A stretch of 43,030 nt of DNA from Candidatus Curtissbacteria bacterium RIFCSPLOWO2_02_FULL_40_11 (GCA_001776505.1 MFBV01000001.1:862-43891); one strand, 5' to 3'; counted from the first letter of the stretch, positions 3,961-28,286 are shown. Numbers and translations are program-made. The notes: generated by a model from the sequence alone, not told the origin.

Positions 3961-4761
3961 ATGAACATTACACTTGGCGGTCTAATCAAAACTTACAGGA
4001 TAAATAAACGCTTGAGCCAATTTGATGTAGCTTTGGCAATCGGTTGGAAAGACACCTCAAGGCTTTCAAAAATCGAGCAGGGGAGGGTTAAGCCTACCAG
4101 GCCGGTTGTGGAAAAAATTATGGCTGCTTTAAACCTTTCATCTGAAGAACGCGGCGAATTTTTATTGACCGGCGGCTATTTACCCAGTGACGAAGAAATC
4201 ACAAAGGTGATTAAAATTGTAAAAGAAAAAATTAATAGTTGGCCATATCCGGCATATTTAATTGATTTTACCTGGAGACTTCTAACTTGCAATGATGCAA
4301 CCGCAAAAACATTCTATGTTAGTCCCGAAATGCAAAAAAATCTTATAAAAATAAAACCAAACCTCTTAGAATTTGCGTTTTTACCTAAAGAAATATTACC
4401 TGTTGAGATTTCAAAGGGTGAGGATGAAAAACATTGTAAACCTTTCCCTGTAGCCCAAATAGCTCAGTTTAAAATAGAGCAAATTATGCGAACAAATGAA
4501 AAATGGTATCGCGATTTAATAAAAAAGATGATGGAGTACAATCAATTCAGAAAGCTATGGACAGATATCACACCAGATTTATACCATAAGAAGCTTTTGG
4601 ATTATGAGTATAAAATTGTAAAAGGGAATTGGGATGGCAAAAAAACTATATTACGTTTCCATCTATTAACTTCAAGAGTAATTAGTGACATCCGGTTCCA
4701 AATCGTTCTATATTTTCCAGCAGAAAAAAATACCCAAACGTTTTTTAAGAAGAACACCTAA
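3961..4761 (+). CDS. XRE-family HTH regulator with MmyB-like C-terminal ligand-binding domain
   Basis: N-terminus LIKTYRINKRLSQFDVALAIGW..SRLSKIEQG is a Cro/C1-type HTH. The C-terminal half (PAYLIDFTWRLLTCNDA...LRFHLLTS...QIVLYFPAEKNT) resembles the MmyB-like PAS-type domain. Confidence 0.75.
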   Translation: MNITLGGLIKTYRINKRLSQFDVALAIGWKDTSRLSKIEQGRVKPTRPVVEKIMAALNLSSEERGEFLLTGGYLPSDEEITKVIKIVKEKINSWPYPAYLIDFTWRLLTCNDATAKTFYVSPEMQKNLIKIKPNLLEFAFLPKEILPVEISKGEDEKHCKPFPVAQIAQFKIEQIMRTNEKWYRDLIKKMMEYNQFRKLWTDITPDLYHKKLLDYEYKIVKGNWDGKKTILRFHLLTSRVISDIRFQIVLYFPAEKNTQTFFKKNT

Positions 4762-5171
4762 TCTTTCCCAAGTACTTCGGCTGCTGCTTTTGCACATTCG
4801 ACATCCTGATTGACGTCGGCTGAACCACCTACGCCTACAGCACCAATTACTTTCCCGCCTTTTTTAATAGGTAGACCGCCAGCAATAACCATTAATTCAC
4901 CGCCAAAAGCACTGGTAGTCCCAAAATAAGGTTTACCCTCAACGGCATAGCCAGCAATATCAGCCGTAGGCAAACCAAGGTTAGCTGATGTAAAAGCTTT
5001 AGCATATGAGTATTTTGGGCTTATATTCAGCGCCCCATCCATTTTATTTGCTGCAATTAAAGTGCCATGGTCATCCACAACTGTTACCGTAACAGTTATT
5101 CCTAGATCTTGAGCTTTAGTTACAGCCTTTTCGATTGCCTTTTGAGCAGATTCTAGCGATATCATCTTCAC
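4758..5171 (-). CDS. GlcG/HbpS-like (DUF336) haem-degrading/binding family protein
   Basis: 137 aa. VTVVDDHGTLIA...AKAFTSA...GGLPI..GGKVIGAVGVGGS is the DUF336 pattern. Convergent 4-nt overlap with the XRE gene. Confidence 0.85.
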   Translation of the reverse strand: MKMISLESAQKAIEKAVTKAQDLGITVTVTVVDDHGTLIAANKMDGALNISPKYSYAKAFTSANLGLPTADIAGYAVEGKPYFGTTSAFGGELMVIAGGLPIKKGGKVIGAVGVGGSADVNQDVECAKAAAEVLGKD

Positions 5172-5221
5172 CTCCTTATCTTTATATGAACTATGTTAGC
5201 AGATAATTTGGGTGAGGTCGA

Positions 5222-6331
5222 TTACCTTTCTTGTTGAAGAACATTAAAATCTTCGCCAGGTTTCACAGTTCTACATCTACCGTCGGACCATCTCAATGCC
5301 TCTAGTAAATCAGCGTTGGGATACTTTCTTAATATAAAAGTTCTGTAACCAAATTCTCCACCACCCCAAGCGCCATTAAATAATAATGCTTGCGAATTAA
5401 CCGGATCTTTTCTGGCAAAATCCTGAATAATAATAATTCCAGTGGACTTAATTGCTTTATATGCTTCAGTAATTATTGTTTCCCTTTCAGTAGGAGTTCT
5501 CTGATATAACACAGTGCTTAATATTACTGCATCAAATTCGTTCTTTGGTATCATATGAGGAGCTTGCTGAGATAGTAAATCTGCTTGTAGAAAAGCAGTA
5601 TTTCGAGACCCTTTAAATCTGGACGCTAATTCATTATCCCCCTTGAGTTCTCTGAGTTCTTTGGGATAGTGGGAGCAAGCAATACTCCACATTTTCACAT
5701 CTGGATCTTCTGGGTTATATTTATCGATTGCTAGCCCTACTTGGATATTCAATGGTTTTCTGTTCTCTGATAGTACTAATTGATCAGGAGTTTCATCAGT
5801 AATTGCTTCAAAAGGAACATTCAGCTCAATGCCAGGGAGGCCTACATTTGCTCCGCAACCAAAATCAGCCACGTTTACCGGATCCCCGTTCCAGTATGAG
5901 GAAATTATTGCCTTAGGGCCTGCATATCTTTGGTACACAGTTGTGATAGTATCTTTAATTAATAGCAATTCTTCTAAAAGTTTCCTATTATCAGGTGCCA
6001 TTAATTCGACCAATAGTGGTCGCCATTGCTCAGAAGTTTCGAAATCTAAGTAACTTCTATCACTTTTTAAATTTAATTGAATATGTTGAATAGATCTAAA
6101 GGTAAGGTTAACAGCATGAGCAGGAGTTAAGGAAGATCTTTCTTGATAGATTCGTGCGAAAAAATCGCCAATTTCTTCATCTGTGTCAATCAATGATACT
6201 AAACACTCATAACAAGAACCAATGCATGGGTCGTTCCCAGGGGGTGTTTTTGCTTGAATCCGCATTAATTCAACTACATCGCCAAAGCTACGTGTAGACT
6301 CAGGAGAGCCTATCGCAAGAGGACGTTCCAC
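5222..6331 (-). CDS. Hypothetical protein with class-I SAM-methyltransferase-like fold (possibly DUF2332-like)
   Basis: 369 aa, GTG start with GGAG 6 nt upstream. VADFGCGANVGL resembles SAM motif I, and DAVILSTVLYQ / GIIIIQDF resemble later MTase strands. GC-richer than flanks by eye. Confidence 0.5.
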   Translation of the reverse strand: MERPLAIGSPESTRSFGDVVELMRIQAKTPPGNDPCIGSCYECLVSLIDTDEEIGDFFARIYQERSSLTPAHAVNLTFRSIQHIQLNLKSDRSYLDFETSEQWRPLLVELMAPDNRKLLEELLLIKDTITTVYQRYAGPKAIISSYWNGDPVNVADFGCGANVGLPGIELNVPFEAITDETPDQLVLSENRKPLNIQVGLAIDKYNPEDPDVKMWSIACSHYPKELRELKGDNELASRFKGSRNTAFLQADLLSQQAPHMIPKNEFDAVILSTVLYQRTPTERETIITEAYKAIKSTGIIIIQDFARKDPVNSQALLFNGAWGGGEFGYRTFILRKYPNADLLEALRWSDGRCRTVKPGEDFNVLQQER

Positions 6332-6371
6332 TTTTTGCTCCTATAAGTTAATTTTACTAGAATTTTGTAGC

Positions 6372-6632
6372 TTATGTCCAAATTTGATGATTTACTATTG
6401 CATTGCCAACTGTGAATCCTAATGTTCCAGCAGTAACTATCCCCTTTTCCCATTTACTGTTTACACTGCCATCCATAGTGCGGGAAAGTACGTAAACAAT
6501 AAACAAGTTTATGGCTCCGGAAATCGCTGAAATTGCCACTTTAGATTCAGGATTTAAATCAGTGAGCATTTGTGTTTCGTTGACAGGTAATTCAGCAGCG
6601 ATACTTAACAGTCTTTCGGTAAGCATTTTCAC
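6372..6632 (-). CDS. Small hydrophobic protein (84-86 aa), unknown function
   Basis: The ORF begins at GTG 6632. The in-frame ATG at 6626 lies 9 nt downstream of a minus-strand TATAAT. Polar N-terminal 30 aa, then two hydrophobic/Gly-rich segments (VAISAISGAINLFIVYVL; GIVTAGTLGFTVGNAIV). Likely co-transcribed with the 369-aa gene. Confidence 0.5.
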   Translation of the reverse strand: MKMLTERLLSIAAELPVNETQMLTDLNPESKVAISAISGAINLFIVYVLSRTMDGSVNSKWEKGIVTAGTLGFTVGNAIVNHQIWT

Positions 6633-6635
6633 GAA

Positions 6636-6663
6636 ATTATACCATTTATTGTCGTTTTGTCAA
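6636..6663 (-). promoter_or_regulatory. Minus-strand promoter TTGACA-16-TATAAT for the 86-aa/369-aa operon
   Basis: Reverse complement of 6658-6663 is TTGACA and of 6636-6641 is TATAAT. The -35 overlaps the -35 of the divergent plus-strand promoter. Confidence 0.45.
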
Positions 6664-6685
6664 ACTCATAGTAATTTGTTATAAT
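6657..6685 (+). promoter_or_regulatory. Promoter TTGTCA-17-TATAAT for the 334-aa gene
   Basis: TTGTCA at 6657-6662, TATAAT at 6680-6685, ATG at 6694 (8-nt gap, no SD). Confidence 0.5.
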
Positions 6686-6693
6686 ACGAAACA

Positions 6694-7698
6694 ATGGAAA
6701 TTGAGGTTCCGAAATTTAGGCGAGTACCCAGGGAAATAGGATCCGAAACATCTAATGTTGATATAATCGAGCGAAATAGAAATGACGGTCTACTTCTCCT
6801 TGATATAAAAATTGACCATGAGACGACTATAGTACCGGTCTTCGACTTACGAGAAGATTCTCACAAGCGTGAAATAGCGAAAGTTTTAATATCAGGAGAT
6901 CCTGTAGCGGCATTTGGAGTAGGAAATTACGGTATTGCTATTGGCATTGATCATCCAAAAAGAGGCAGATTCCCTAATTCGTGGGAACATTACTGGAAAT
7001 TTAAGCCTGACAGGCCAAGAGATGCGAAAATCCCAATTTTAATGCCCCCGAAATATTGGAGTGAAATAATAGATTTCAGAAAAATACACTCAGGGTTTAA
7101 ACCTTTGTTTAATAGAGGACAATTGGAGAGGGCTTACAGGGAAGCAGTAATATTTCATATAGTGGCACCTTCTTATAATTATGCTCCGCACATCAATCAT
7201 CCTGCGCTTGTGACTGCTGAAGACGGAAAAAACTCGGTCAGTGCTTTCTGGTGGGACGACCCTGATTTAGAAGAGATAGCGGATATTGCCATGAGACTTG
7301 ACCCTAATGTATTAATTGGGATTTCTTCTTTTAATGATCGCGGAGAAAATCCAGCATTTAATTACGATGAAGTAAAGGATTACATTATGCGAAAGAAAAA
7401 AGTACCGTTCAAATATATTATTAGAGATTCTATAGGTGAAAAAGTAGGAGTGAAGAGCTCTCATCCTCAGTTTAAAGTTCCAGAAAATGATGAAAAGCCG
7501 GTTTGGCAAGTAGTAAGGAGAGGGGCAAGAAGTGTTAAAAGATTTCTTCAAGCCACAAGATTACCGTTTGAAGCAGAAGGTAAGGATTCAGCACTGTTTG
7601 CGCCTAGGGCCCATTCAGAAGATGTTGATTTGGATAATTTAATCGATACTGTACATGAATTAATTTTAAGGGACTACTCCTTGAGAAAAGCCAGCTAA
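6694..7698 (+). CDS. Hypothetical protein, weak YrdC/Sua5-like resemblance
   Basis: 334 aa, no TM. ISGDPVAAFGVGNYGIAIG, KFKPDRPRDAKIPILMP and GISSFNDRGENP loosely parallel YrdC-fold blocks (vYGL, KxRP..kPl, tSAN.SG.p). This is a by-eye inference only. Confidence 0.3.
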   Translation: MEIEVPKFRRVPREIGSETSNVDIIERNRNDGLLLLDIKIDHETTIVPVFDLREDSHKREIAKVLISGDPVAAFGVGNYGIAIGIDHPKRGRFPNSWEHYWKFKPDRPRDAKIPILMPPKYWSEIIDFRKIHSGFKPLFNRGQLERAYREAVIFHIVAPSYNYAPHINHPALVTAEDGKNSVSAFWWDDPDLEEIADIAMRLDPNVLIGISSFNDRGENPAFNYDEVKDYIMRKKKVPFKYIIRDSIGEKVGVKSSHPQFKVPENDEKPVWQVVRRGARSVKRFLQATRLPFEAEGKDSALFAPRAHSEDVDLDNLIDTVHELILRDYSLRKAS

Positions 7699-7741
7699 TA
7701 AATTCTTGGCGCATAGTTTATTATCAGTTTATACTGGATGT

Positions 7742-9166
7742 ATGGCTGATTATGTTACAACTCCTAAAACGAGTGACACTATAAAATCTCTTTGGAAATT
7801 AGAAAAAATTATACTCAATACCTTGGATTTCAAAGAGGTAGTGCAAAAGATATGCGACAGCATGCTCTCCGAGCTAGGTTACCTTAAATTAGGATACAGA
7901 ATTATAGTACTAACACTTGCGGACGAGAAAAAAGGTGTATTAAGAAGGATTTCACTTTCGCAAACTCCCGAAGCAGCCAAAGCTCAGGCAGCGTCGGCAA
8001 TTCCATTTCACGACATAGAAATCCCGCTTAACGCTCAAAAAAATCTTCTTATTCAAACACTTCACGAAAGGAAACCGCACTCTACGCATTATTGGCCTGA
8101 TATATTCACACCTGTTTTAACGCCTGAACAGGCAATTGCAAATCAAAAAGCTTCTGGGATTAAAACAAGCATGCTTTATCCGGTGACAATTCAAGATAAG
8201 ACTTTGGGTGTTCTTATTTTTAGCATGGTAAAGAACTTAGAGGAGGTATCAGAAGCAGAAGAAGACTTAATTCGTGGTTTCACAGATGTAGTAGGGTTAG
8301 CCGTGCAGAATGCAAAGCTATATACAACCTTATCGGAGACTACACAAAAGCTTGATAAAGCCAATAAAAGACTTCAGGAGTTGGATAAATTAAAAGACGA
8401 TTTCGTTTCGATGGCTTCGCATGAACTGCGGACTCCCATGACTGCCATCAAAAGTTACCTCTGGATGGCGCTCAATAAGAAAAAGGCAGAGTTATCTGAA
8501 GATTTAAACAGGTACTTAGGTAGAGCTTATCATTCAACAGAAAGGCTAATTTCGCTCGTCAACGACATGTTAAATATCTCCAGGATAGAAAGTGGCCGAA
8601 TCGCCTTGAAACTTGGCGAAGTTGACCCTGTGGAATTAGTCCATGAAGTAGTCGAGGAAGTTATTCCCAAAGCAACAGAACTTCAATTGAACGTTAAAGT
8701 TATAGAGAGGAAAGTCTCTAAAGTCCTAATAGACAAAGACAAAATCCACGAGGTGGTTATTAACTTAATCGGCAATTCCCTTAAGTTTACAAAACCGGGA
8801 GGGACTGTCTCTGTAACTTTCGACGAAAAACCGCCTTTTGTTTATATTTCGGTAACCGACACCGGTGTTGGTATGGCCAAAGAAGATATGCAAAAATTAT
8901 TTAAAAAGTTCAGTATGATCGAGCACTCCTATACGGCGGCTTCAACTTCCGGCGGCACCGGCTTGGGCCTTTATATTTCCAAATCGATTGTGACTCTTCA
9001 CAAAGGAGATATAACTGCTTACAGCCCCGGACTGGAAAAGGGTTCAACTTTCACCGTCAGCCTGCCGATTACAGGCACCAGTACTGCGCTGGAACTTCAA
9101 AAAGAAGCGCCCAAAGTTACCGAAGATTCTAAAGGACTGGAGAAAAAAAGGTTGGGCTATATTTGA
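7742..9166 (+). CDS. Cytoplasmic GAF-domain sensor histidine kinase
   Basis: The ORF is open from TTG 7706 and the first ATG is at 7742. H-box SHELRTPMTAI, N-box NLIGNSLKFT, G1 DTGVGM, G2 GGTGLGLYISK. GAF-like N-terminal half, no TM. Confidence 0.9.
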   Translation: MADYVTTPKTSDTIKSLWKLEKIILNTLDFKEVVQKICDSMLSELGYLKLGYRIIVLTLADEKKGVLRRISLSQTPEAAKAQAASAIPFHDIEIPLNAQKNLLIQTLHERKPHSTHYWPDIFTPVLTPEQAIANQKASGIKTSMLYPVTIQDKTLGVLIFSMVKNLEEVSEAEEDLIRGFTDVVGLAVQNAKLYTTLSETTQKLDKANKRLQELDKLKDDFVSMASHELRTPMTAIKSYLWMALNKKKAELSEDLNRYLGRAYHSTERLISLVNDMLNISRIESGRIALKLGEVDPVELVHEVVEEVIPKATELQLNVKVIERKVSKVLIDKDKIHEVVINLIGNSLKFTKPGGTVSVTFDEKPPFVYISVTDTGVGMAKEDMQKLFKKFSMIEHSYTAASTSGGTGLGLYISKSIVTLHKGDITAYSPGLEKGSTFTVSLPITGTSTALELQKEAPKVTEDSKGLEKKRLGYI

Positions 9167-9182
9167 CTGTGTCTAACTGGGT

Positions 9183-9211
9183 TTGACATCAAAGGCCAAT
9201 CGCTGTTAAAT
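9183..9211 (+). promoter_or_regulatory. Promoter TTGACA-17-TTAAAT upstream of the response regulator gene
   Basis: TTGACA at 9183-9188, TTAAAT at 9206-9211, ATG at 9230. Confidence 0.4.
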
Positions 9212-9229
9212 CAAATAGGCAAGATCACT

Positions 9230-9643
9230 ATGGACAAAAAAAGGATTTTACTGGTCGAAGACGATCAATACACAAGAGAACTATATCAGGAAGTAATTAA
9301 AGATGAAGGTTATTTTCTCGACAGCGTTACAAATGGTGAAGAAGGTTTAGAAAAAATTAAAAAAGGGGGCTACAATCTGATTCTCCTGGATATAATGATG
9401 CCCAAAATGAGCGGTCTTGAAGTTTTAAGGTCTATTAAAAACGAACCACCCAAAATACCAAACGGCCCAATAGTAATTTTAACTAACCTCACAAACGATC
9501 CTATTTTAAACGAAGCTTATGGGCTTAATGCCAGGGATTTTGTAGTTAAATCGGATATAACGCCCGGAGAATTAATAGAAAAGATTAAAGGATATTTAGA
9601 AGAATCCGGTAACAAAGAAAAAACAAAACAAGAGCAAAAGTAG
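9230..9643 (+). CDS. Stand-alone receiver (CheY-like) response regulator
   Basis: 137 aa. ILLVEDD acidic pocket, LLDIMMP phospho-acceptor Asp, conserved Lys in FVVKSD. No output domain. Confidence 0.9.
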   Translation: MDKKRILLVEDDQYTRELYQEVIKDEGYFLDSVTNGEEGLEKIKKGGYNLILLDIMMPKMSGLEVLRSIKNEPPKIPNGPIVILTNLTNDPILNEAYGLNARDFVVKSDITPGELIEKIKGYLEESGNKEKTKQEQK

Positions 9644-9653
9644 AAGCTTAACC

Positions 9654-10112
9654 CTACTTATTTACCCAACTGCTGTCATCGCCGGTGATATTTTCGAGAA
9701 GTATTACTACAGCAGGCACAGTCAAGCTTTTTTTAAAAATATTAACGGGAGAAACAAAAACTCTAATTTTTTTACCATTTACGCTAACGTCTTTCGGGCC
9801 AATTCGAATCCTTTCCCTAAAACAATTATCTATATCTTTCATAAGATCATATTTGCCCTTAAATAGCTCTTGGAGTTTTTCAACATTCCAACCGCCATGA
9901 TCAATAGGTCCCAAAATTTCATCCACAGTAATATTTTTAAAGGTAATTTGCTTGTAATCATCAATCATCATAAAACCTATCGCGAGATTTTCAAGCGCAG
10001 ATCTAAAGTATGTTTTCTCTCTCTCGATTTCTAAGTAACCTTTACTTATTTGAGCCTTTGCATGCTCTAAAGTTTCTATGCGTTTTTTCAAGGTACCGGA
10101 TTTATCAGCCAT
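9654..10112 (-). CDS. PAS-like sensory domain protein with N-terminal coiled coil
   Basis: 152 aa. LENLAIGFMMIDDYKQITFKNITVDEILG resembles the start of a PAS fold. No effector domain. Confidence 0.5.
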   Translation of the reverse strand: MADKSGTLKKRIETLEHAKAQISKGYLEIEREKTYFRSALENLAIGFMMIDDYKQITFKNITVDEILGPIDHGGWNVEKLQELFKGKYDLMKDIDNCFRERIRIGPKDVSVNGKKIRVFVSPVNIFKKSLTVPAVVILLENITGDDSSWVNK

Positions 10113-10151
10113 TTATTTAATTGAAGCTAAACAGAAGCAAACTGTCAAATC

Positions 10152-10484
10152 ATGTTCATTGCAAATGTGTTAATATACGCACAGATGGAAGCCTTTTTCT
10201 ATGATTATATTTATAAGTATTTAAACCCGGAAACACTTGGAGGGTTGGCAGTTATTGTAGTTTTATCTATTTGGGGTTTAGTTTGGAAGAGTTTAGCTTT
10301 TTGGAAATCGGCCCGCAATAATGAAAGATCATGGTTTATAGCATTTATAGTACTTCAAACAGCTGGAATTCTCGAAATTCTGTATTTATTCAAATTTTCA
10401 AAAGACAAATTAACACTTGAAAAAGTTCAATCCAATATTAAATCGTATAAGATAGAAGATCCGCGCAAATTACTAAAAAAATAA
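10152..10484 (+). CDS. DUF5652-like small membrane protein
   Basis: WKSLAFWKSARNNERSWFIAFIVLQTAGILEILYLF matches the DUF5652 core as I recall it. The true start may be the internal ATG at 10185. Confidence 0.6.
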   Translation: MFIANVLIYAQMEAFFYDYIYKYLNPETLGGLAVIVVLSIWGLVWKSLAFWKSARNNERSWFIAFIVLQTAGILEILYLFKFSKDKLTLEKVQSNIKSYKIEDPRKLLKK

Positions 10485-10567: not shown

Positions 10568-10603
10568 AAAGGCCGATTTTTGGTGCTAAAATTAGCTCTA
10601 TAT

Positions 10604-11794
10604 ATGTGGCAAAAAATTAAAAATATATATCACTATTTTCAGGCCCTATCTGCGGCGCTGTATTTCCGCTTTCCGTCTAAAAAACTTATTGTAATAGGCA
10701 TAACAGGTACAGATGGGAAAACAACAACAGTAAACATGCTTCATCACGTATTGAGTTTAAATAACAAAAAAGTTTCCTCGATTTCGTCAATTAGTGCAAA
10801 AATCGCAGACAAATCATTTGATACTGGATTCCATGTAACTACCCCAAGTCCATGGCAAATTCAAAAATATCTAAGAAACGCCCTCAACTCCAGATCACAA
10901 TATTTCATTTTAGAAGCAACCTCCCATGGTCTTGATCAAAACCGACTTGCGTTCATCGATTTCGAAGTTGCTGCTATAACAAACATATCTCACGAGCATT
11001 TCGACTATCACAAAAGCATGAAAAATTACTTAGCTAGTAAGGCTAAATTGTTTAAAAACGTTAAATATTCGGTTCTTAATGCAGATGACGAGAGCTATAA
11101 AGATTTAAAAAACAAAGCGAGCGGAGAAATACTCAACTACAGTTTACAAAAGAACGTAGATTTTAATTTGAAAGAATATCCGATTAACCTAAAAATTCCC
11201 GGGGAATTTAATTTAAAGAATGCTTTGGCAGCATTGGCAATTTCTTCGGCGTTGGGGATTAGCAAATCTAGAACCCTCAAAGCCATTACTAGTTACAAAG
11301 GGATAGTGGGGAGACTTGAAGATTTAGACTTTGGTCAAAACTTTGATGTTTATGTGGATTTTGCACATACCCCCGTAAGTCTCAAAGAATCTCTACAAAC
11401 TTTAAAAGAAAAAACTAGAGGAAGATTAATAGCAGTTTTTGGTTCAGCAGGAAAAAGAGACGAGTCCAAACGTCCTTTAATGGGTAAAGTTGCATCATCA
11501 CTTGCTGATATATCAATTCTTACTGCAGAAGATCCAAGAGATGAGGATGTAAATAAGATATGTAACCAAATCGCCAAAGGTTTTAAATCAAATAGGAAAA
11601 AAGAAAATGAAGATTTTTTTATCATCCCTGACAGAAAAAAGGCTATTAAATTCGCGGTAGATTTGGCAAGAAGCAATGATACGGTTAGTCTTTTTGGTAA
11701 AGGTCACGAAAAGAGTATGAATATAAAAGGCAAGGAATTTCCCTGGAATGAGATAAACGTAGCTAAATGGGCGATAAATCAAAAACTAAAATGA
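10604..11794 (+). CDS. murE: UDP-MurNAc-L-Ala-D-Glu:diamino-acid ligase MurE, lacking the usual N-terminal domain
   Basis: The ORF is open from TTG 10580 and the first ATG is at 10604. P-loop GITGTDGKTTT sits only ~32 aa from the start. EATSHGLDQNR, NISHEHFDYH, DFAHTP and GSAGKRDESKRPLMG...AEDPRDE are MurE blocks. Confidence 0.8.
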   Translation: MWQKIKNIYHYFQALSAALYFRFPSKKLIVIGITGTDGKTTTVNMLHHVLSLNNKKVSSISSISAKIADKSFDTGFHVTTPSPWQIQKYLRNALNSRSQYFILEATSHGLDQNRLAFIDFEVAAITNISHEHFDYHKSMKNYLASKAKLFKNVKYSVLNADDESYKDLKNKASGEILNYSLQKNVDFNLKEYPINLKIPGEFNLKNALAALAISSALGISKSRTLKAITSYKGIVGRLEDLDFGQNFDVYVDFAHTPVSLKESLQTLKEKTRGRLIAVFGSAGKRDESKRPLMGKVASSLADISILTAEDPRDEDVNKICNQIAKGFKSNRKKENEDFFIIPDRKKAIKFAVDLARSNDTVSLFGKGHEKSMNIKGKEFPWNEINVAKWAINQKLK

Positions 11795-13791
11795 AAAGTG
11801 TTGCTGCGATAGTTTTAGCAGGTGGGATTGGAAAGAGGATGAAATCAAAAACATCCAAAGTTCTTCACGAAATCAAAGGTAAACCAATGATACTGCGCAC
11901 TATTCACAATCTTAAAGCTGCAAATGTCGACGATATTATTGTTGTTGCTAATCCCGCTAATATTAATGAACTTAACAAGGTATTGCCAAATAATATCCGC
12001 TCAACTATTCAAAAAAACCCAAAAGGCACAGGTGATGCAACTGAAACAGGTTTAACAAAGATAAAAAAAGACACAGGTACGTTACTTGTAGTTAATGGAG
12101 ATGATAGCGCCTTTTATAAACCGGAAACCATTAAACGAGTAATAAAACAACACATAGAAACAAATAGTATTCAAACTTTCTTAACGGTAAAGGTTGCAAA
12201 TCCGGCAGGGCTTGGCAGAGTTCTGAAAAAAAATGGTCAAGTCTTAGCAATCATTGAAGAAAAAGAGGCAACACAAGCCCAAAAGAAAATAAAAGAGATT
12301 AATGCTGGATTTTATGTTTTTAAAACAGAATGGTTGAGAGAAAATATCTCAAAGATTGATGCGTCCCCTGCTACCGGTGAAAAATACGTGGTAAATCTTG
12401 TTAGTATTGCAACTAGGGGCGGCCAAAGAGTAAATGCTTATTTAGTCAAGGATGAACATGAATGGTATGGGATAAATACAAAAGCCGATCTTCAAGTAGC
12501 AAACGAGAAGTTTGCTAAAAAAATTCATATCATGGGTATGGCGGGAGCAGGAGCTTCGGCCGTTGCTCATATTGCTAAAGAGTCTGGATTTGACGTTTCA
12601 GGATGTGATTTAACCCCAAATTCCTCTTATGTAAAAAGTTCAAAACTGAAAATAGCGAATGGTCACGGTGCAGCGCATGTTCATAATATTGCTATGTTAA
12701 TTGTTTCTCCTGCCGTTGTTAAAAATAACCCTAACAGTGAAGAGCTAAAAGAAGCGAAAAAACATGATATTCCAACTTTAACTTGGCAGGAGTTTCAAGG
12801 TAAGTTTTTGCAAAAAAATAAATTTGTGATTTCTGTTGCGGGCGGTTATGGCAAATCCACAACAACGGCAATGATATCTCAAATTATGATCAGTGAAGGG
12901 CTAGATCCAACTTGTGAAGTAGGTGCTGTTGTTAAAGATTGGGGAACAAATTACAAAGTAGGAAAGTCAATATATTATATTAATGAAGCAGATGAATACG
13001 CTGACAATTTCTTAAATTACAATCCGGATATAGCAGTTATCTTAAATATTGCATGGGATCACCCTGATTATTTCAAAAACCGAGAAATGCTCCAAAAATC
13101 GTATCAGAAATTTATTAACAATATTAAAAAAGACGGCTATCTAATCATTGGTCGTGATGAAAACTTATACGATTTAGCAAAATCAGCAAGAAAAGATATA
13201 AAAGTCGTAAAAATAGAGGATTTTAATCAAGAAAAATTGTCAATAATAGGGGATTTTAGAATAATAAATGCCAATGCTGCTTTAACAGTTGCTAAACTTT
13301 TAAAACTGGACATAAACAGAGCCAAAAAATCCGTCCAAAATTTCAAAGGAGTTGCCAGAAGACTGGAGTTAAAAGGAGAAGTAAATGGTGCGGTAGTATA
13401 CGACGATTATGCCGTTCAGCCTTTTACAGTGTTAACAACAGCAAATGCCCTAAAGGATAAATTTAAAGACAAAAAAGTAGTTTTAGTTTTAGAACCACAT
13501 ACTTTTTCCAGAATCAATACCTTTTATGCTGATTTCATTTCAGCTCTCAAAAAAACAAATGTTGAATCAATTTTAGTAACTAATGTATTTGCGGCCAGAG
13601 AAAAAGGCGATATTAAACAACTTTCCAAAAAACTTGCTAGGTCAGTTGGCAAAAAAGCGACATATTCAGGATCAATTAAAGAATCTGCTAATTACCTTCA
13701 GGAAAACAATAAAAATTTCGATATTATTCTCTCCATGGGCGCAGGGGATATTTACAAACTGTACGACATCATGAAATCAAGGAACCTATAA
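11791..13791 (+). CDS. murC: Fusion protein: GlmU-type N-terminal sugar-1-P uridylyltransferase domain + UDP-MurNAc:L-alanine ligase MurC
   Basis: ATG 11791 forms an ATGA overlap with the murE stop (the ORF is open from 11767). The N-terminal ~250 aa carry AIVLAGGIGKRMKS..KVLHEI.GKPM, GTGDA, IIEEKEATQAQKKIKEINAG and GEKYV, the GlmU pyrophosphorylase pattern, with no left-handed beta-helix. The C-terminal part has IHIMGMAGAGASAVA, VAGGYGKSTTTAM and NEADEYA, which are MurC blocks. Confidence 0.85.
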   Translation: MKSVAAIVLAGGIGKRMKSKTSKVLHEIKGKPMILRTIHNLKAANVDDIIVVANPANINELNKVLPNNIRSTIQKNPKGTGDATETGLTKIKKDTGTLLVVNGDDSAFYKPETIKRVIKQHIETNSIQTFLTVKVANPAGLGRVLKKNGQVLAIIEEKEATQAQKKIKEINAGFYVFKTEWLRENISKIDASPATGEKYVVNLVSIATRGGQRVNAYLVKDEHEWYGINTKADLQVANEKFAKKIHIMGMAGAGASAVAHIAKESGFDVSGCDLTPNSSYVKSSKLKIANGHGAAHVHNIAMLIVSPAVVKNNPNSEELKEAKKHDIPTLTWQEFQGKFLQKNKFVISVAGGYGKSTTTAMISQIMISEGLDPTCEVGAVVKDWGTNYKVGKSIYYINEADEYADNFLNYNPDIAVILNIAWDHPDYFKNREMLQKSYQKFINNIKKDGYLIIGRDENLYDLAKSARKDIKVVKIEDFNQEKLSIIGDFRIINANAALTVAKLLKLDINRAKKSVQNFKGVARRLELKGEVNGAVVYDDYAVQPFTVLTTANALKDKFKDKKVVLVLEPHTFSRINTFYADFISALKKTNVESILVTNVFAAREKGDIKQLSKKLARSVGKKATYSGSIKESANYLQENNKNFDIILSMGAGDIYKLYDIMKSRNL

Positions 13792-16078: not shown

Positions 16079-17026
16079 ATGAGCAAGAAAATTAATGTAG
16101 CTGTCTTAATGGGCGGCAAATCCGCAGAGCACGACATATCTCTGATAACAGGCGGGGAGGTTGTTAAAAATCTCGATTCCAAGAAATACAGAGCACTTTC
16201 GATTGTTATTTCAAAAGATGGAAAATTATTTAAGTTTAACGATAAAAATTACCCTCTTTCTCAATTATCAGCGATTCAATGCCAGTTGTTTTTTATCGCT
16301 ATGCATGGTTCTTCTGGGGAAGACGGACGAATTCAAGGGTTTTTAGATTTTTTAGGTGTAGCTTACACAGGTTCAGGGGTACTGGCTTCTGCTCTTGGTA
16401 TGGACAAACTTTACTCAAGGAAATTATTTACTCAAGCAGGTCTTACTGTACCAAAGACTGTTGCAGTCAAAAAAGGCAAAACTATTCCCAAATTAAATTT
16501 CGACTTTCCAGTTTTTGTAAAACCCAATAATCAAGGTTCATCCGTTGGAGTTTTTAAAGTTAAGAATAAAAAAGAATTAGTGTCAGCCCTTAAAAAATCC
16601 CACAAATATTCCGATCAAGCTCTAGTCGAGGAAAGTGTCGATGGAGTAGAAGTCACAAGCTCTATATTAGGAAAAGAAAAACCTGTCGCTTTACCGCTTG
16701 TTGAAATTGTGCCTAAAACACAATTTTTCAACTACAAAGCAAAATACAATGAACGATTCTGCGAGGAAATAGTTCCAGCAAGAATCAGCAAAATCTTAAC
16801 TAAAAAAGCGAAAGCAGCAGCCATTTTAGCTTATCAAACAATCGGATGCCAAGGGTTTGGCCGTGTAGACATGATTATCAAAAATAACAAAGTTTATGTT
16901 CTGGAAGTCAACACGATTCCAGGTCTTACCGCGGTTTCACTACTACCCAAAGCAGCCAAAGCAACAGGAATTTCCTATAGGCAGCTTTTAAACGAAATTA
17001 TCTCTTTTGCCCATCCCATAGTTTGA
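16079..17026 (+). CDS. ddl: D-alanine--D-alanine ligase
   Basis: 315 aa. VAVLMGGKSAEHDISL, HGSSGEDGRIQGFL, FVKPNNQGSSVG, GRVDMII, LEVNTIPGLT. ATG immediately follows the murA TAA. Confidence 0.95.
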   Translation: MSKKINVAVLMGGKSAEHDISLITGGEVVKNLDSKKYRALSIVISKDGKLFKFNDKNYPLSQLSAIQCQLFFIAMHGSSGEDGRIQGFLDFLGVAYTGSGVLASALGMDKLYSRKLFTQAGLTVPKTVAVKKGKTIPKLNFDFPVFVKPNNQGSSVGVFKVKNKKELVSALKKSHKYSDQALVEESVDGVEVTSSILGKEKPVALPLVEIVPKTQFFNYKAKYNERFCEEIVPARISKILTKKAKAAAILAYQTIGCQGFGRVDMIIKNNKVYVLEVNTIPGLTAVSLLPKAAKATGISYRQLLNEIISFAHPIV

Positions 17027-17052
17027 CAATTCTAATTAAGATTCTGTATAAT
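17023..17052 (+). promoter_or_regulatory. Promoter TTGACA-18-TATAAT overlapping the ddl stop, driving the 472-aa orphan gene
   Basis: TTGACA at 17023-17028 (the ddl TGA is 17024-17026), TATAAT at 17047-17052, ATG at 17060 (7-nt gap, no SD). Confidence 0.55.
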
Positions 17053-17059
17053 TCGCTCC

Positions 17060-18478
17060 ATGAGTGAACGACGCTTTGGACCCCGAAGGCCTTCTGAAAG
17101 GCCAGTCATCCATCGTAAAGATTTTGATAAATATTGGCCATCTCCCTGGAGTTTATACGAACGGCCCAGCCCCTTTCGTTTAGGGCCGGAGATTGAAAGT
17201 GGTTTGCATCTACACTTTGTTACCAAGGGTGAAAGAAAGTGGTCTGAAGAGTTTGCCCTGTCTGAACAAATTTACAAAAAGGAGCTTGCGGGCCTTCCCT
17301 TTCATGAGGCTTTTGGAAAATATCTCTCCATAATGCTAAGAGTTAGCGACATCCATCTTCCTCTAGGGAAAGCAAATAAACCCAGAAGCATTAGTGTCTT
17401 GTCTGGTATCCAAGTTGTTCTAATCGAGCTATTGGCGATGGAACATGCAGAGAAAATCCCCCAGTCTTATTTTGAAACGATGAGAAATCAGGAGCAACTA
17501 CTTCTGGAAACAGAACATCCAGATAAATGGTTTTTACCTAAAGTAAAGAATTTGATTCATCGGGTTGAAGGATGGAGAAATATTTATGAATGGATTGATT
17601 TAATAAGAAAAAGACTGGGCCATTTAAAAAGTCAATTAGATCCACAGGAGATCCAAGGTGAATGTAGTGAGATAGCCAAAAGAATAAGCGAGGATAGGGC
17701 GTATGGCGTTAAGAATTGTTATTTTACTTCACCCTTGTTTTTAAAACCCAATCAGGCATTTACCATATTTGATGAGCGGTTGGGATTACCAGATAAGATC
17801 GATAAATATGACATGCCTAATGACACAATAGCCTGTATAGGCGTAGGGGATAAGCCACGCGGCAAAATCGAGGTTATACCACTTGCCGAGGAATATATCC
17901 ACAACATTAAATGGCGAGGTTTCGGAACAACCTTCACCTATGCAATTTTCTCAGTAAATCAAAGTGGAGAAATCAGCTCAAGCGTACTAGGAGCCATGAG
18001 CCCGCTAAGATATGGTTTTGAAAGAAAAAAAGCTCTTCCAGAATATGAACTTTGGAGAGCTTTTATGCTAATGAGGATATATGATTTGACAAAACGCGCG
18101 GATGTTATTGAAAAAATGCCCTCGCTGGATAAAGCAGAAAGAGAAATTTCAAAAGGGGAAGGTGGCATATTAGGAATTGGTAAAAAGGTTAAACGAGTAG
18201 ATTACAGAAGCTTACTCTTTCCAAGAGTCAAATATGATGCTACAGAAGTTGTTGAGACAAATGAATCGGTCGAGCAAAAAAGATTTATCGACCGGCACCG
18301 TGTAACATGGTTTGTGAGGCGACTACCTATAGGTTATAATGCGACGGAAAGAGGAATCGAATACGCAAATGAGCACGGGGTGACACTGAGGGAAGGGGAA
18401 ACTATAGTAAGAGAACATTTTAGAGGGAAAAGTAGAGAAGAAGCTCTTGAAAAACCGACAAAAGCATCATTCAGATAA
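17060..18478 (+). CDS. Hypothetical protein, 472 aa, no recognised domain, compositionally atypical
   Basis: Long uninterrupted ORF with its own promoter. W/R/P/E-rich, no TM. GC-richer than neighbouring dcw genes on hand-counted lines. Confidence 0.85.
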   Translation: MSERRFGPRRPSERPVIHRKDFDKYWPSPWSLYERPSPFRLGPEIESGLHLHFVTKGERKWSEEFALSEQIYKKELAGLPFHEAFGKYLSIMLRVSDIHLPLGKANKPRSISVLSGIQVVLIELLAMEHAEKIPQSYFETMRNQEQLLLETEHPDKWFLPKVKNLIHRVEGWRNIYEWIDLIRKRLGHLKSQLDPQEIQGECSEIAKRISEDRAYGVKNCYFTSPLFLKPNQAFTIFDERLGLPDKIDKYDMPNDTIACIGVGDKPRGKIEVIPLAEEYIHNIKWRGFGTTFTYAIFSVNQSGEISSSVLGAMSPLRYGFERKKALPEYELWRAFMLMRIYDLTKRADVIEKMPSLDKAEREISKGEGGILGIGKKVKRVDYRSLLFPRVKYDATEVVETNESVEQKRFIDRHRVTWFVRRLPIGYNATERGIEYANEHGVTLREGETIVREHFRGKSREEALEKPTKASFR

Positions 18479-18535
18479 AAGAAGAAGTGATTATTTGAAA
18501 AGTGTCTTTCCTTCAACTACTATCAACCCCATAGT

Positions 18536-18564
18536 TTGATAAACGTCTAAAATTACGTTATAAT
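18536..18564 (+). promoter_or_regulatory. Promoter TTGATA-17-TATAAT for murF (paralogue of the 17023 promoter)
   Basis: TTGATA at 18536-18541, TATAAT at 18559-18564, ATG at 18574. Preceded by the same CCCATAGT as the copy at 17015. Confidence 0.55.
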
Positions 18565-18573
18565 TAACTCTCC

Positions 18574-19776
18574 ATGCCTTACTCACAAGTATACCGCAAC
18601 ATTGAAGATTGGAAAAAACCTTTGCATGTGGTTCATGCCTATTTAGCCAAAATTTACTTCAAATTTTTACCCAGCACTCAGGTAATTGGTGTTACCGGCA
18701 GTGTCGGCAAAACCTTGACGCAGAATGCTATTTGTAGTGTTCTCTCTAAAAAATTCAAAATAGTCTGCGGTGACGAAAATCTCGACCCGACTTACAGAAT
18801 TCCCAAAACTATTTTTGCGGCGAGGCCTTGGCATAAATTTATTGTTCTTGAATACGGCGTAGAGCATCCACAGGATATGGATTATTATCTCTGGTTAGCA
18901 AGGCCACAATTTGCTATTGTAACTAATATTGCACTTACTCACACGAAATATTTTAAATCGGAAAAAGGAGTATACGCAGAAAAGGTAAAACTAATAAAGG
19001 CTTTACCGCCAACAGGCACAGCAATCCTAAATAAAAATGATAAGGTCGTAGCCGAAATGAAGTCGCAAACGAAAGCAAATGTTTTCTGGTTTGGAAAGAC
19101 TTCTAAAATGGGAATAAAAATATCCGACTACTCACAGGATTTAAGAGGATCCACTTTCAGAATGCATTTTCATAAGGATAAAGCTGCTGTTTCCTGGAAA
19201 ATCATTGGCAAGCACCAACTGCTTTCTGCACAAGCAGCAGCTTCGATGGGTATAGTTGCTGGCCTTAGCCTAAAGCAAATAGCCTCAGGTCTTTCACAAG
19301 TCGAAGTCCCGCTTCACAGATTAAATGTTGTTAAAACACAAAAAGCTTATATTCTTGACGACACCTATAACTCTTCACCTAAAGCAGCCAAAGAATCTAT
19401 AGAAACTTTAGTCGACTTGGGTGCCACTCATAAAAAACTTGCTATTTTAGGTGAAATGAAGGATTTAGGTAGTTTATCAACTACAGCCCATATAGATTTA
19501 GGTGAATTTATATCAAAAACCAATATCGACCATCTAATTACAATCGGAAAGGTTGCAAAGCTCATAGGCAAAAGTGCACGAAAAAATAAATTTAAAGGAC
19601 AAGTTTTAAATTATTTCACGACACAGCAAGCTCTCGTGCAAGCTCAAAAGTTGACAAGCGAAAATTCACTCATTTTAATTAAGGGTTCACGCCACGCTCA
19701 TCTTGAAAGAATTGTTTTTGCTCTTCAGGGAAAGTCTACGCAAATTTCTTGTTATCAGTGTGGGAATTTGAAATAA
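18574..19776 (+). CDS. murF: UDP-MurNAc-tripeptide--D-alanyl-D-alanine ligase MurF, short N-terminus
   Basis: 400 aa. P-loop GVTGSVGKT at residues 39-47. LEYGVEH, DDTYNSSPKAAKESI, LAILGEMKDLG and IKGSRHAHLE are MurF blocks. Confidence 0.8.
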   Translation: MPYSQVYRNIEDWKKPLHVVHAYLAKIYFKFLPSTQVIGVTGSVGKTLTQNAICSVLSKKFKIVCGDENLDPTYRIPKTIFAARPWHKFIVLEYGVEHPQDMDYYLWLARPQFAIVTNIALTHTKYFKSEKGVYAEKVKLIKALPPTGTAILNKNDKVVAEMKSQTKANVFWFGKTSKMGIKISDYSQDLRGSTFRMHFHKDKAAVSWKIIGKHQLLSAQAAASMGIVAGLSLKQIASGLSQVEVPLHRLNVVKTQKAYILDDTYNSSPKAAKESIETLVDLGATHKKLAILGEMKDLGSLSTTAHIDLGEFISKTNIDHLITIGKVAKLIGKSARKNKFKGQVLNYFTTQQALVQAQKLTSENSLILIKGSRHAHLERIVFALQGKSTQISCYQCGNLK

Positions 19777-27188: not shown

Positions 27189-28286
27189 ATGTTAATTAAA
27201 CCAGATGTAAACAGATTTGCCAAAATAAAAGTTCTCGGACTCGGTGGCGGTGGCACTAACGCTCTCAATTCAATGATTACTCAAGCCCAAATACAAGGTG
27301 TAGATTTTGTTGCTGTTAATACCGACCAACAACACCTACTTGCTTCTCAGGCCCAAACAAAAGTTCAAATTGGCGACGGTTTAACAAAAGGCTTAGGTGC
27401 CGGGGCAGACCCCGAGATTGGCCGAAAAGCAGCAGAAGAATCTCTGGAGCGAATTAAAGAAACAATTACTGGGGCCGACATGGTTTTTCTAACTTATGGT
27501 GCGGGCGGAGGCACAGGAACAGGTGCTGGACCAGTGATTGCGGAACTTGCCAAAAAACTCGGCATTTTAACAATTGGAGTTATTACAAAACCATTTGGAT
27601 TTGAAGGAACCAGAAGAATGGTTGTAGCCGACGAAGGGATAGAAATCCTGAAAGATAAAGTCGATACACTAATTGTTATCCCTAATCAAAAACTACTGGA
27701 TGTTGTCGATGAAAATGTTTCTCTTCTAGAAGCATTTAAATTAGCAGATTCAGTCCTCTCACAAGGTGTGCAGGGGATATCTGATATTATAGTTGTTCCA
27801 GGCTTAATCAATGTTGACTTTGCAGATGTTAAAGCAATAATGAAGAGCGCAGGATCAACACTTATGGGTGTCGGTAGCGCAACCGGCGAAAATCGGGCAG
27901 CAACTGCTGCCAGAAGCGCAGTAGCCTCACCTCTCTTAGATACTTCTATTGAAGGGGCCCGAGGAGTTCTCTTCAACATTACTGGTGGTTCTGACATGAC
28001 CATGAACGAAGTCGATGAGGCTGCAAAGGTCATTACCTCTCAGGCAGATCCAGATGCGCAAATAATATTCGGCGCAGCAATTGACGAAAAATTAATAGAT
28101 CAGATAAAGGTGACAGTAATTGCCACAGGATTTGATGAGACTCGACAACAATACGCAAGACCAACTGTTCAAGATGTACTAGATACAGAAGGCAAGGAGC
28201 TGGAAGAAGGCGAAAAACCAGCCGGTGATGGACAGATGGAAGACGATGAATTCGACGTTCCCACTTTTTTACGTCAAATACGTTAA
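27189..28286 (+). CDS. ftsZ: Cell division GTPase FtsZ
   Basis: 365 aa. GLGGGGTNA, tubulin signature [12 protein letters not shown]-terminal FtsA-binding peptide [12 protein letters not shown]. Confidence 0.98.

Follow-up and report, generated by a model that had tools for sequence, protein, structure and literature searches.

Variable hotspot slots between conserved core genes exchange defence or accessory cargo by homologous recombination in their flanks. In T-even phages, the seg and mob genes are free-standing homing endonuclease genes that are known for 'intronless homing', and co-conversion of the flanking sequence has been described for genes of this type (PMC2988022). Here, we describe gene X, which lies between ddl and murF in a 43,030-nt stretch of DNA from Candidatus Curtissbacteria (the window, within which positions are counted). 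The host group belongs to the Microgenomates of the candidate phyla radiation (CPR); the closest relatives of the ddl gene in genome and metagenome collections are from Candidatus Curtissbacteria, with 60–75% protein identity. The locus is a real, well-delimited and laterally exchanged orphan cassette from an undescribed family, and its genetic behaviour is closest to that of the T-even free-standing homing endonuclease genes and of core-gene hotspot cargo. The best overall explanation, to which we assign a probability of about 50%, is that gene X is an accessory cassette in the ddl-murF promoter slot.

The features of the locus are as follows.

16079–17026, plus strand: ddl (D-Ala-D-Ala ligase), the upstream neighbour of gene X, with Dala_Dala_lig_N/C domains
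16852–18590, plus strand: exchanged block, which takes in the 3´ end of ddl, both promoters, gene X, the tail and the start of murF (17 nt); 96.7% identical to locus L006
16852–17014, plus strand: ddl 3´ segment of the exchanged block, 163 nt, which makes ddl a mosaic
17015–17029, plus strand: copy 1 of the conserved element, CCCATAGTTTGA(CAA), overlapping the last ddl codons and stop; the 15-mer is also found 5´ of the gene X homologue of locus L003
17023–17052, plus strand: predicted promoter 1, TTGACA-18-TATAAT, score 12/12, ending 7 nt before the ATG of gene X
17060–18478, plus strand: gene X, 472 aa, calculated isoelectric point 9.2
18479–18527, plus strand: 49-nt tail from the gene X stop to copy 2, without a terminator-like site; the 3´ part shows a weak alignment with the native murF-promoter spacer of other lineages
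18528–18542, plus strand: copy 2 of the conserved element, CCCATAGTTTGA(TAA), matching the GAT-type element in the murF promoters of L009, L010, L029, L030 and L033
18536–18564, plus strand: predicted promoter 2, TTGATA-17-TATAAT, a resident-type murF promoter, score 11/12, ending 9 nt before the murF ATG
18574–19776, plus strand: murF-type Mur ligase gene, the downstream neighbour of gene X, with Mur_ligase_M/C domains; only its first 17 nt are in the exchanged block

Gene X is inserted in a variable ddl-murF slot

We mapped murA, ddl, gene X, murF and mraY on all fetched loci and read the junction sequences of the 14 sampled Curtissbacteria lineages. The slot is empty, with ddl followed by murF, in nine lineages (L007/L053, L008/L022/L023, L009/L025, L010/L026, L011, L013, L029, L030 and L033). 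Three lineages hold other genes, which encode an alanine racemase (alr; L012/L031/L032, at 6948–8084 of L012), a DUF218 protein (L024, 6982–7578) and an unknown 339-aa protein (L034, 6973–7992). The occupants of L024 and L034 directly follow the promoter with the conserved 12-mer, and both overlap the start of murF. Gene X is found in the slot only in the window and in L006/L028, and is absent from 12 of the 14 lineages. Because nine lineages are empty and three hold other genes, gene X is an insertion with respect to its lineage, in a slot whose content varies; the ancestral state was evidently ddl followed by the murF promoter and murF. Lineages with and without gene X come from the same metagenomes. 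A distant relationship between gene X and the L034 occupant was considered and rejected (hhalign probability 5%).

These results bear on several claims of an earlier note, which had been made from the window alone. The insertion that it proposed is supported by the search for slot orthologues, and the empty site that it predicted, with ddl abutting murF, exists in the nine related lineages. Translation reproduced its open reading frame (ORF) at 17060–18478 on the plus strand, with 472 aa and the same N-terminus. A domain scan agreed that gene X is the sole gene without a cell-wall or division domain in the murE...ftsZ array, from the Mur ligase gene at 10580 to ftsZ at 28286. The description of gene X as foreign-looking did not hold: its GC content of 0.407, GC content at third codon positions (GC3) of 0.340 and codon-usage distance of 0.129 all fall within the ranges of the window genes (0.317–0.435, 0.218–0.392 and 0.080–0.170, respectively), so gene X is not compositionally foreign. 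The GC content is 0.376 in ddl, 0.377 in murF and 0.376 in the whole window. A W/R/P/E-rich composition was likewise claimed. The protein is rich in Glu (10.4%) and Arg (8.7%), as well as Lys (7.8%), while Trp (1.9%) and Pro (5.7%) are unremarkable beyond the first 40 residues.

Evidence for a recent exchange between two species

The window and L006 are 96.7% identical (1681/1739) over 16852–18590, compared with 67–69% in the left flank and 71% in the right flank. The edges of this block are sharp: the last dense mismatch cluster ends at 16851 and the next starts at 18591. The synonymous divergence (dS) between the two is 0.073 in gene X, about 2.1 in murA and about 4 at the 5´ end of murF, the flanking genes having reached synonymous saturation. 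The ddl gene is a mosaic with a junction at 16852. In the 5´ part, L007 is the nearest relative (77%) and L006 the most distant (60%), and the identity over the last 175 nt is 94% with L006 and 79% with L007; the encoded protein has 343 aa in L006 and 315 aa in the window. The comparison shows that the block carrying gene X was recently exchanged between two species, with the neighbouring dcw (division and cell wall) genes as the site of recombination or gene conversion. Because the identity runs past both 12-mer repeats into both flanking genes, the spread went via flanking homology and not via two independent site-specific insertions. The ratio of nonsynonymous to synonymous divergence (dN/dS) of gene X relative to L006 is 0.25, and the gene evidently evolves under purifying selection.

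Two further observations concern this region. The ddl segment at 16175–16300 is essentially unalignable with L006 (21–37% identity in sliding windows), so that ddl itself differs to an unusual degree between the two lineages. The segments 16888–16907 in the 3´ end of ddl and 18035–18054 in the interior of gene X form a 20-nt inverted repeat (18/20 complementary); both arms lie within the exchanged block, and the pairing may be due to chance.

The 12-mer and the two predicted promoters

The 12-mer CCCATAGTTTGA is present in exactly two copies in the window, at 17015–17026 and 18528–18539, and the similarity between the two copies reaches 14 of 15 nt. No third copy was found in the window when one mismatch was allowed. 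The two predicted promoters are the top two sigma-70-type matches within 11–29 kb. Both -10 boxes end 7–9 nt 5´ of an ATG that lacks a Shine-Dalgarno sequence, so the predicted transcripts are leaderless or near-leaderless. No terminator-like site was found between gene X and murF. The two promoter segments are related in their -35, -10 and start-proximal elements only, and the spacers between the hexamers are unlike. The recurrence of the 12-mer had been reported in the earlier note together with a common promoter layout and a duplication of the junction. The recurrence is non-random, with a chance expectation of 0.16 matches and two matches in none of 100 shuffles; the promoter layout is confirmed at both sites.

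A TATAAT or CATAAT box 7–11 nt 5´ of an ATG without a Shine-Dalgarno sequence is also present at the operon-first gene starts at 1642, 3961, 6694 and 34794. Because several such genes share this type of start, leaderless transcripts seem common here and not special to gene X and murF. An inverted near-copy of the 15-mer at 16831–16845 was considered as a terminal inverted repeat and rejected, because its position is beyond the conserved block and L006 has not kept it. No terminal inverted repeats were found around gene X.

The murF promoter of the empty sites has the form (C)CCCATAGTTTGAT, about 17 nt, TATAAT, 5–9 nt and (CTCC)ATG. It is present in L009, L010, L029, L030 and L033, with variants in L011, L013, L007 and L008. 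The element overlaps the ddl stop (CCA TAG) in some lineages and is located in the spacer, 50–90 nt 3´ of ddl, in others. The exact 12-mer is found at the ddl-murF junction of 11 further loci (~8 lineages); elsewhere in about 640 kb of fetched loci, it occurs only 5´ of the gene X homologue in L003. The 12-mer is a murF promoter element that most Curtissbacteria lineages in the sample have conserved. It is kept for its own sake, since it is retained in a genus whose intergenic DNA is otherwise unalignable.

Closer homologues of gene X carry the same element in other contexts. In L003, a 68%-identical homologue between secF and msrB has the upstream region CCCATAGTTTGACAA...TATAATTCtCTCtATG, and the corresponding region at copy 1 of the window is CCCATAGTTTGACAA...TATAATTCgCTCcATG; the -10 and start regions resemble each other. 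In L062, a 46%-identical homologue in a third context is preceded by the one-gap variant CCTATAGTTGACA...TACAAT. Copy 2 is of the GAT type, and its TATAATTAAC has a match 5´ of murF at the empty sites L008 and L010. The 12-mer is the normal murF promoter element, including at empty sites, and also heads gene X homologues elsewhere; for these reasons, the repeat is not a simple target duplication. The two copies are, as judged from these comparisons, two copies of a selected promoter module rather than a passive target-site duplication. In our reading, copy 2 and its spacer would be the resident murF promoter, and copy 1 most likely travels with gene X.

Three observations on these junctions are added. 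In L003 (5127–5155), the secF stop region CCCATTAGTTAA directly precedes a perfect CCCATAGTTTGA and looks like a degenerate tandem copy of the 12-mer; the left junction of the window that matches this secF junction reads CCCAT-CCCATAG. A palindromic spacer (ATCACAAwwTCTGACATATCAGAAAATGTGAT), which may be an operator or a terminator, is located 5´ of the murF 12-mer in L012 (8110–8160) and L030 (~1000–1060). The tail at 18479–18527 aligns weakly with the sequence just 3´ of this palindromic spacer.

The earlier idea of an insertion with duplication of the junction therefore divides into two parts. Gene X is inserted relative to the lineage; the presence of the 12-mer at empty sites and at other gene X loci speaks against the repeat being a duplication. 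A single insertion of ~1.5 kb, in which a promoterless gene X arrived and the resident ddl-murF junction was duplicated, would be consistent with several details: copy 1 overlaps the ddl stop exactly at the position of the resident element in the closest empty-site relatives (L007, L008 and L010), copy 1 begins with 18 nt that are identical to the resident promoter of L034, copy 2 has the same -10 region as L008 and L010, and the inserted genes of L024 and L034 directly use the resident promoter. However, the two copies are unrelated outside the functional elements, and the 15-mer with TATAATTC.CTC.ATG also heads gene X at the secF-msrB site of L003, with a close variant in L062. A junction duplication would therefore need a secondary movement of promoter and gene X together, or repeated capture of the same promoter type. 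In addition, the 3´ part of the tail resembles the native spacer of more distant lineages (a weak alignment with L030 and L012), which suggests that copy 2 and its spacer are native and complete and did not arise as one half of a duplication. On balance, a duplicated junction is doubtful, and two separate promoter units are preferred.

Protein family of gene X

Gene X has no family match in Pfam, PADLOC, PHROGs or NCBIfam, and no match in PADLOC-DB v2 at E≤1. A scan of 100 family members against family libraries including Pfam, NCBIfam, PHROG and PADLOC returned no consistent match. No transposase domain (DDE, DEDD, HUH, serine or tyrosine type) or recombinase domain was found in gene X, and no Mur, Fem, ATP-grasp, racemase, MraY/MurG, glycosyltransferase or nucleotidyltransferase family match. 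The view of the earlier note that gene X has no recognisable catalytic signature is supported by the Pfam, PADLOC, PHROG, NCBIfam, PDB and Foldseek searches, in which no known family was found. Two weak resemblances were set aside. An E3_binding-like match in 4 of the 100 members, over A-S-x-x-A-x-x-x-A-x-E-x-G-I-x-L, was regarded as a local motif resemblance, and the only match in a PDB sequence search with both profiles, a helical match to SPACA9 (E 0.007), was judged spurious. No literature on the gene X family or on the ddl-murF slot was found.

The family itself is sizeable. A word-indexed search found seven close homologues, and a second and a third search of this kind added almost nothing. 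An exhaustive profile search detected at least 368 representative clusters (50% identity) at E≤1e-3, 224 at E≤1e-10 and 42 at E≤1e-30. Members are mostly 430–500 aa long, and some reach 550–670 aa; only two members have a source name, and both are from Patescibacteria and annotated 'hypothetical protein' (TAK04759.1 and MDL2363251.1 are examples from the family). Gene X is a full-length member, and the profile match covers residues ~5–457. The hallmarks of the family are R-x-Y-G-V-K, G-E-L, D-L-x-V-P, P-R and H-x-V-x-W-x-x-R-x-L-P-x-G...E-T-x-V-R-x-H-x-R-G. Residues conserved at ≥75% include Arg213, Tyr215, Gly216, Lys218, Asp238, Ala258, Gly303, Tyr329, Asp342, Leu343, Pro388 and Arg389 (100%), together with a C-terminal set that comprises His413, Arg420, Leu422, Pro423, Gly425, Glu447, Thr448, His453, Arg455 and Gly456. 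Twelve of these positions are near-invariant (Arg213, Tyr215, Lys218, Asp238, Asp342, Arg389, His413, Arg420, Glu447, Thr448, His453 and Arg455) and, in our view, suggest the active site of an enzyme that acts on a phosphate-bearing substrate.

A first structure model, built from an alignment of eight sequences, had a predicted local distance difference test score (pLDDT) of 69.7, and its Foldseek search was empty. AlphaFold2 with an alignment of 122 sequences yielded a pLDDT of 90.6 and a predicted template modelling score (pTM) of 0.89. In this model, a disordered Pro/Arg-rich N-terminus (residues 1–18) is followed by a helical bundle (19–212), a beta-rich domain (220–307), helices and a small C-terminal beta-beta-alpha-beta module. 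The N-terminal helical bundle is variable and the C-terminal module is highly conserved. Compared with other members of the family, gene X and its L006 and L003 homologues carry the disordered N-terminus as an extra element. Foldseek searches with the pLDDT 90.6 model found no neighbour in the PDB (best E 0.36) or BFVD (best E 0.2), and all template modelling scores were below 0.16. The modelled fold is provisionally regarded as new relative to these two collections.

Genomic contexts of the homologues

Each homologue examined is located in a different genomic context.

L003: between secF and msrB
L001, 505–7147: 39%-identical homologue adjoining FtsK_gamma, ART-PolyVal, DUF1861 and VirD4/TrwB-like coupling-protein genes, with an M78 peptidase gene (Peptidase_M78) farther on
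L004: PAS and metallo-beta-lactamase genes
L057: gene for a 1043-aa methyltransferase-like protein, and uvrB
L058: HAD, SDR and MOSC genes
L059: genes for unknown large proteins; ddl 6 kb away
L060: Mur ligase and racemase genes 3–4 kb away
L064: unknown genes; a UvrC-like gene nearby
L066, 4400–10325: distant homologue within a dTDP-sugar (rml) operon, with HAD/dTDP-sugar dehydratase-type genes on one side and rmlD/rmlA-type genes on the other

The neighbourhood of the L001 homologue looks like a mobile element. In L066, terminator-like hairpins are present on both sides of the homologue, and murA is 3 kb downstream. The distant homologue of L060 (588 aa) is bracketed by a 26-nt direct repeat (22/26) at 7931–7956 and 9801–9826, 1870 nt apart; the downstream copy is not a promoter, because it lies between convergent genes. 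None of ten other homologue loci, including L003, has convincing flanking direct repeats.

The contexts are relevant to the proposal that gene X is a lineage-specific cell-envelope accessory enzyme or regulator, co-regulated with murF via the CCCATAG-TTGA element and recruited to precursor-synthesis operons. Gene X lies inside the dcw cluster behind a murF-type promoter, the promoter element is kept with gene X at 46–68% protein identity, and wall-related genes are among the other slot occupants (alr and the DUF218 gene). The rml operon of L066, with murA nearby, and the Mur ligase, racemase or ddl genes within 3–6 kb in L060 and L059 point in the same direction. However, genes for the envelope occur frequently in small CPR genomes, which makes proximity over several kilobases weak evidence. 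Most homologue contexts are non-envelope (secF/msrB, methyltransferase/uvrB and the mobile-element-like region), 12 of the 14 lineages have no gene X at the slot, and the 12-mer is at no other dcw promoter in the window. The protein has none of the Mur, Fem, ATP-grasp, glycosyltransferase or nucleotidyltransferase matches sought above, no signal peptide was obvious in the translation by eye, and the earlier note had seen no transmembrane segment, both without formal prediction. An envelope role is thus unlikely, and the reading of gene X as accessory cargo is retained.

The same loci bear on a selfish origin, in which gene X would be a self-mobilising DNA-acting enzyme with a new fold (homing-endonuclease-like or a site-specific recombinase) that copies its cassette into CCCATAGTTTGA-type sites, the identical flanks being co-conversion tracts. 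Gene X is intergenic between conserved genes and shows presence/absence polymorphism, and the protein has conserved Arg, His, Lys, Asp and Tyr residues. Short tracts of near-identity reach unequally into the two sides, covering 163 nt of the left flank and about 50 nt beyond copy 2 in the right flank, which resembles co-conversion (PMC2988022). At L003, the gene X unit has the same 15-mer as its left end and the preceding secF end resembles the 12-mer; a direct repeat brackets the L060 homologue. Against this, there are no terminal inverted repeats, the ten other homologue loci lack convincing repeats, and the 43-kb window holds a single copy of gene X. The 12-mer is kept at empty sites for promoter-related reasons of its own, and plain transformation with homologous recombination accounts for the block just as well. 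We therefore regard a self-mobilising enzyme as quite improbable. The stronger version, that gene X represents a new class of self-propagating single-gene CPR element that uses its own CCCATAGTTTGA-type promoter element as recognition or recombination site and homes into look-alike promoters of essential operons such as that of murF, leaving a working promoter on each side, would be less probable still.

That gene X is not an insertion at all, being either an ancestral resident lost elsewhere or a chimera of metagenome assembly (all of the sequences are metagenome assemblies, and a shared block could in principle attract chimeric joins), is strongly disfavoured, because dS in gene X is about 30-fold below that of the flanks, which excludes vertical co-inheritance, the blocks in the two backgrounds differ by 3.3%, the breakpoints lie at the same clean alignment positions, and the L006-type arrangement recurs in the independent assembly L028.

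The surrounding dcw cluster

The window contains a dcw cluster in the order mraW, ftsI, ..., Mur ligase (10580), an NTP-transferase/Mur-ligase fusion, murB, murA, ddl and gene X, followed by murF, mraY, a racemase gene, murD, ftsW, murG, ftsQ, ftsA and ftsZ. The region 16500–19000 has no Rfam match, tandem repeat or convincing overlapping ORF. In the 674-aa fusion ORF (11767–13791), an N-terminal NTP_transferase domain (GlmU/MobA-like) is joined to a complete Mur ligase (Mur_ligase, _M and _C); this ORF overlaps the preceding 404-aa Mur ligase ORF, which starts at 10580, by 28 nt. The cluster is broken between ftsI and the first Mur ligase gene (3961–10484) by genes that include an XRE-type helix-turn-helix regulator gene, a minus-strand methyltransferase-like gene, an unknown 334-aa gene, a GAF histidine kinase gene and a response regulator gene.

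Discussion

We propose that gene X constitutes an accessory single-gene expression cassette, in which a strong leaderless promoter and one ORF occupy the ddl-murF promoter slot. Promoter 1 would give rise to a leaderless mRNA of gene X. With no terminator after gene X, its transcription may continue into murF. Promoter 2, which is of the resident type, would keep the expression of murF-mraY independent of gene X, and the insertion would thereby be non-polar and tolerated inside an essential operon. The cassette may have recombined at, or been built from, the 12-nt element that it has in common with the murF promoter, and would spread as accessory cargo by recombination among co-occurring Curtissbacteria. 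As for function, we tentatively favour, at somewhat less than even odds, a conflict-type enzyme (defence or addiction-like) that acts on nucleic acid or nucleotides and is carried as accessory cargo.

Several observations weigh against this combined interpretation. Searches found no structural or sequence neighbour that supports the active-site reading of the conserved residues. The locus in the window is not a defence island, and no toxin or nuclease motif was found; among the contexts, the window is a dcw cluster, the L001 homologue is located beside ART-PolyVal, VirD4-like and M78 peptidase genes, and the others are mixed. Matches to PADLOC-DB v2 among the 100 members were limited to nine different single-member matches with E≥0.0016. 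No homologues of gene X were found in phage and plasmid collections (tblastn) or in IMG/VR (two pattern sets). Two homologues are within envelope-precursor operons (this window and the rml operon of L066), and the cis element in common with the murF promoter, together with the operon placement, would be just as consistent with a role in the cell envelope. The evidence on copy 1 is divided: it resembles the promoters that accompany gene X elsewhere, and its overlap with the ddl stop and the 18 nt identical to L034 are as in a resident promoter.

The locus provides a clean, dated case of gene flow between CPR (Curtissbacteria) species, with breakpoints placed to a few nucleotides in an essential cell-wall operon, in organisms that cannot yet be manipulated. 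It also exposes a promoter element that is conserved in most sampled Curtissbacteria and is common to murF and to gene X with its closer homologues examined. The family is missing from Pfam, NCBIfam, PHROGs and PADLOC, and its confident model without a PDB or BFVD neighbour is a target for structural and biochemical work. Nucleotide-resolution transfer, promoter sharing, family size and this model make gene X a good experimental target. Orphan genes are common in CPR genomes, which tempers the interest. A new mechanism would be added if gene X drives its own spread or proves to be a novel defence enzyme; otherwise, it is a well-characterised orphan.

Comparison with known systems

Among the element classes considered, insertion sequences and transposons differ from gene X in that no transposase or terminal inverted repeats are present and the 12-nt repeat is also found at empty sites. 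A site-specific integrative element is likewise a poor match, as no recombinase domain was found in gene X or in the larger neighbouring ORFs scanned and the high-identity block does not end at the repeats. Gene X shows neither a known defence domain (PADLOC-DB v2) nor a domain of peptidoglycan precursor enzymes, and its absence from 12 of the 14 sampled lineages differs from the conserved dcw position of a peptidoglycan enzyme. Membership of an uncharacterised Patescibacteria family is supported by the full-length profile match and the conserved motif set.

As in Campbell-type integration and integron cassettes, the inserted unit has an identical 12-nt sequence at either side; after the left copy comes a -10 and start region of the gene X type, after the right copy a resident-type murF promoter, and other genes stand directly behind the resident promoter in L024 and L034. 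Unlike these systems, no recombinase domain was found in gene X, the slot or the larger window ORFs scanned, and no attC-like element was found. The core itself is a conserved promoter element, and the documented spread is via flanking homology and not via the core.

The ddl-murF slot differs from described hotspot slots in that it lies inside an essential dcw operon, holds a single gene and has no integrase, tRNA or island hallmark; gene X matches no known defence family. Like hotspot slots, this one fixed position holds nothing, alr, a DUF218 gene, an unknown gene or gene X, and the gene X allele has moved between species with pieces of both flanking genes.

Compared with the T-even homing genes, gene X has no known homing-endonuclease motif or fold and no nuclease module was found, the host replicon is a bacterial chromosome and the protein is about twice the usual size. 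Near-identity extends 163 nt into ddl and, through the promoter, 17 nt into murF, a pattern that co-conversion and transformation with ordinary recombination would produce alike. Like the T-even genes, gene X is a single intergenic gene between conserved genes that is present or absent among relatives (nine lineages empty and two with gene X) and is inherited with short flanks, and in both cases the promoter arrangement matters for tolerance by the neighbouring genes.

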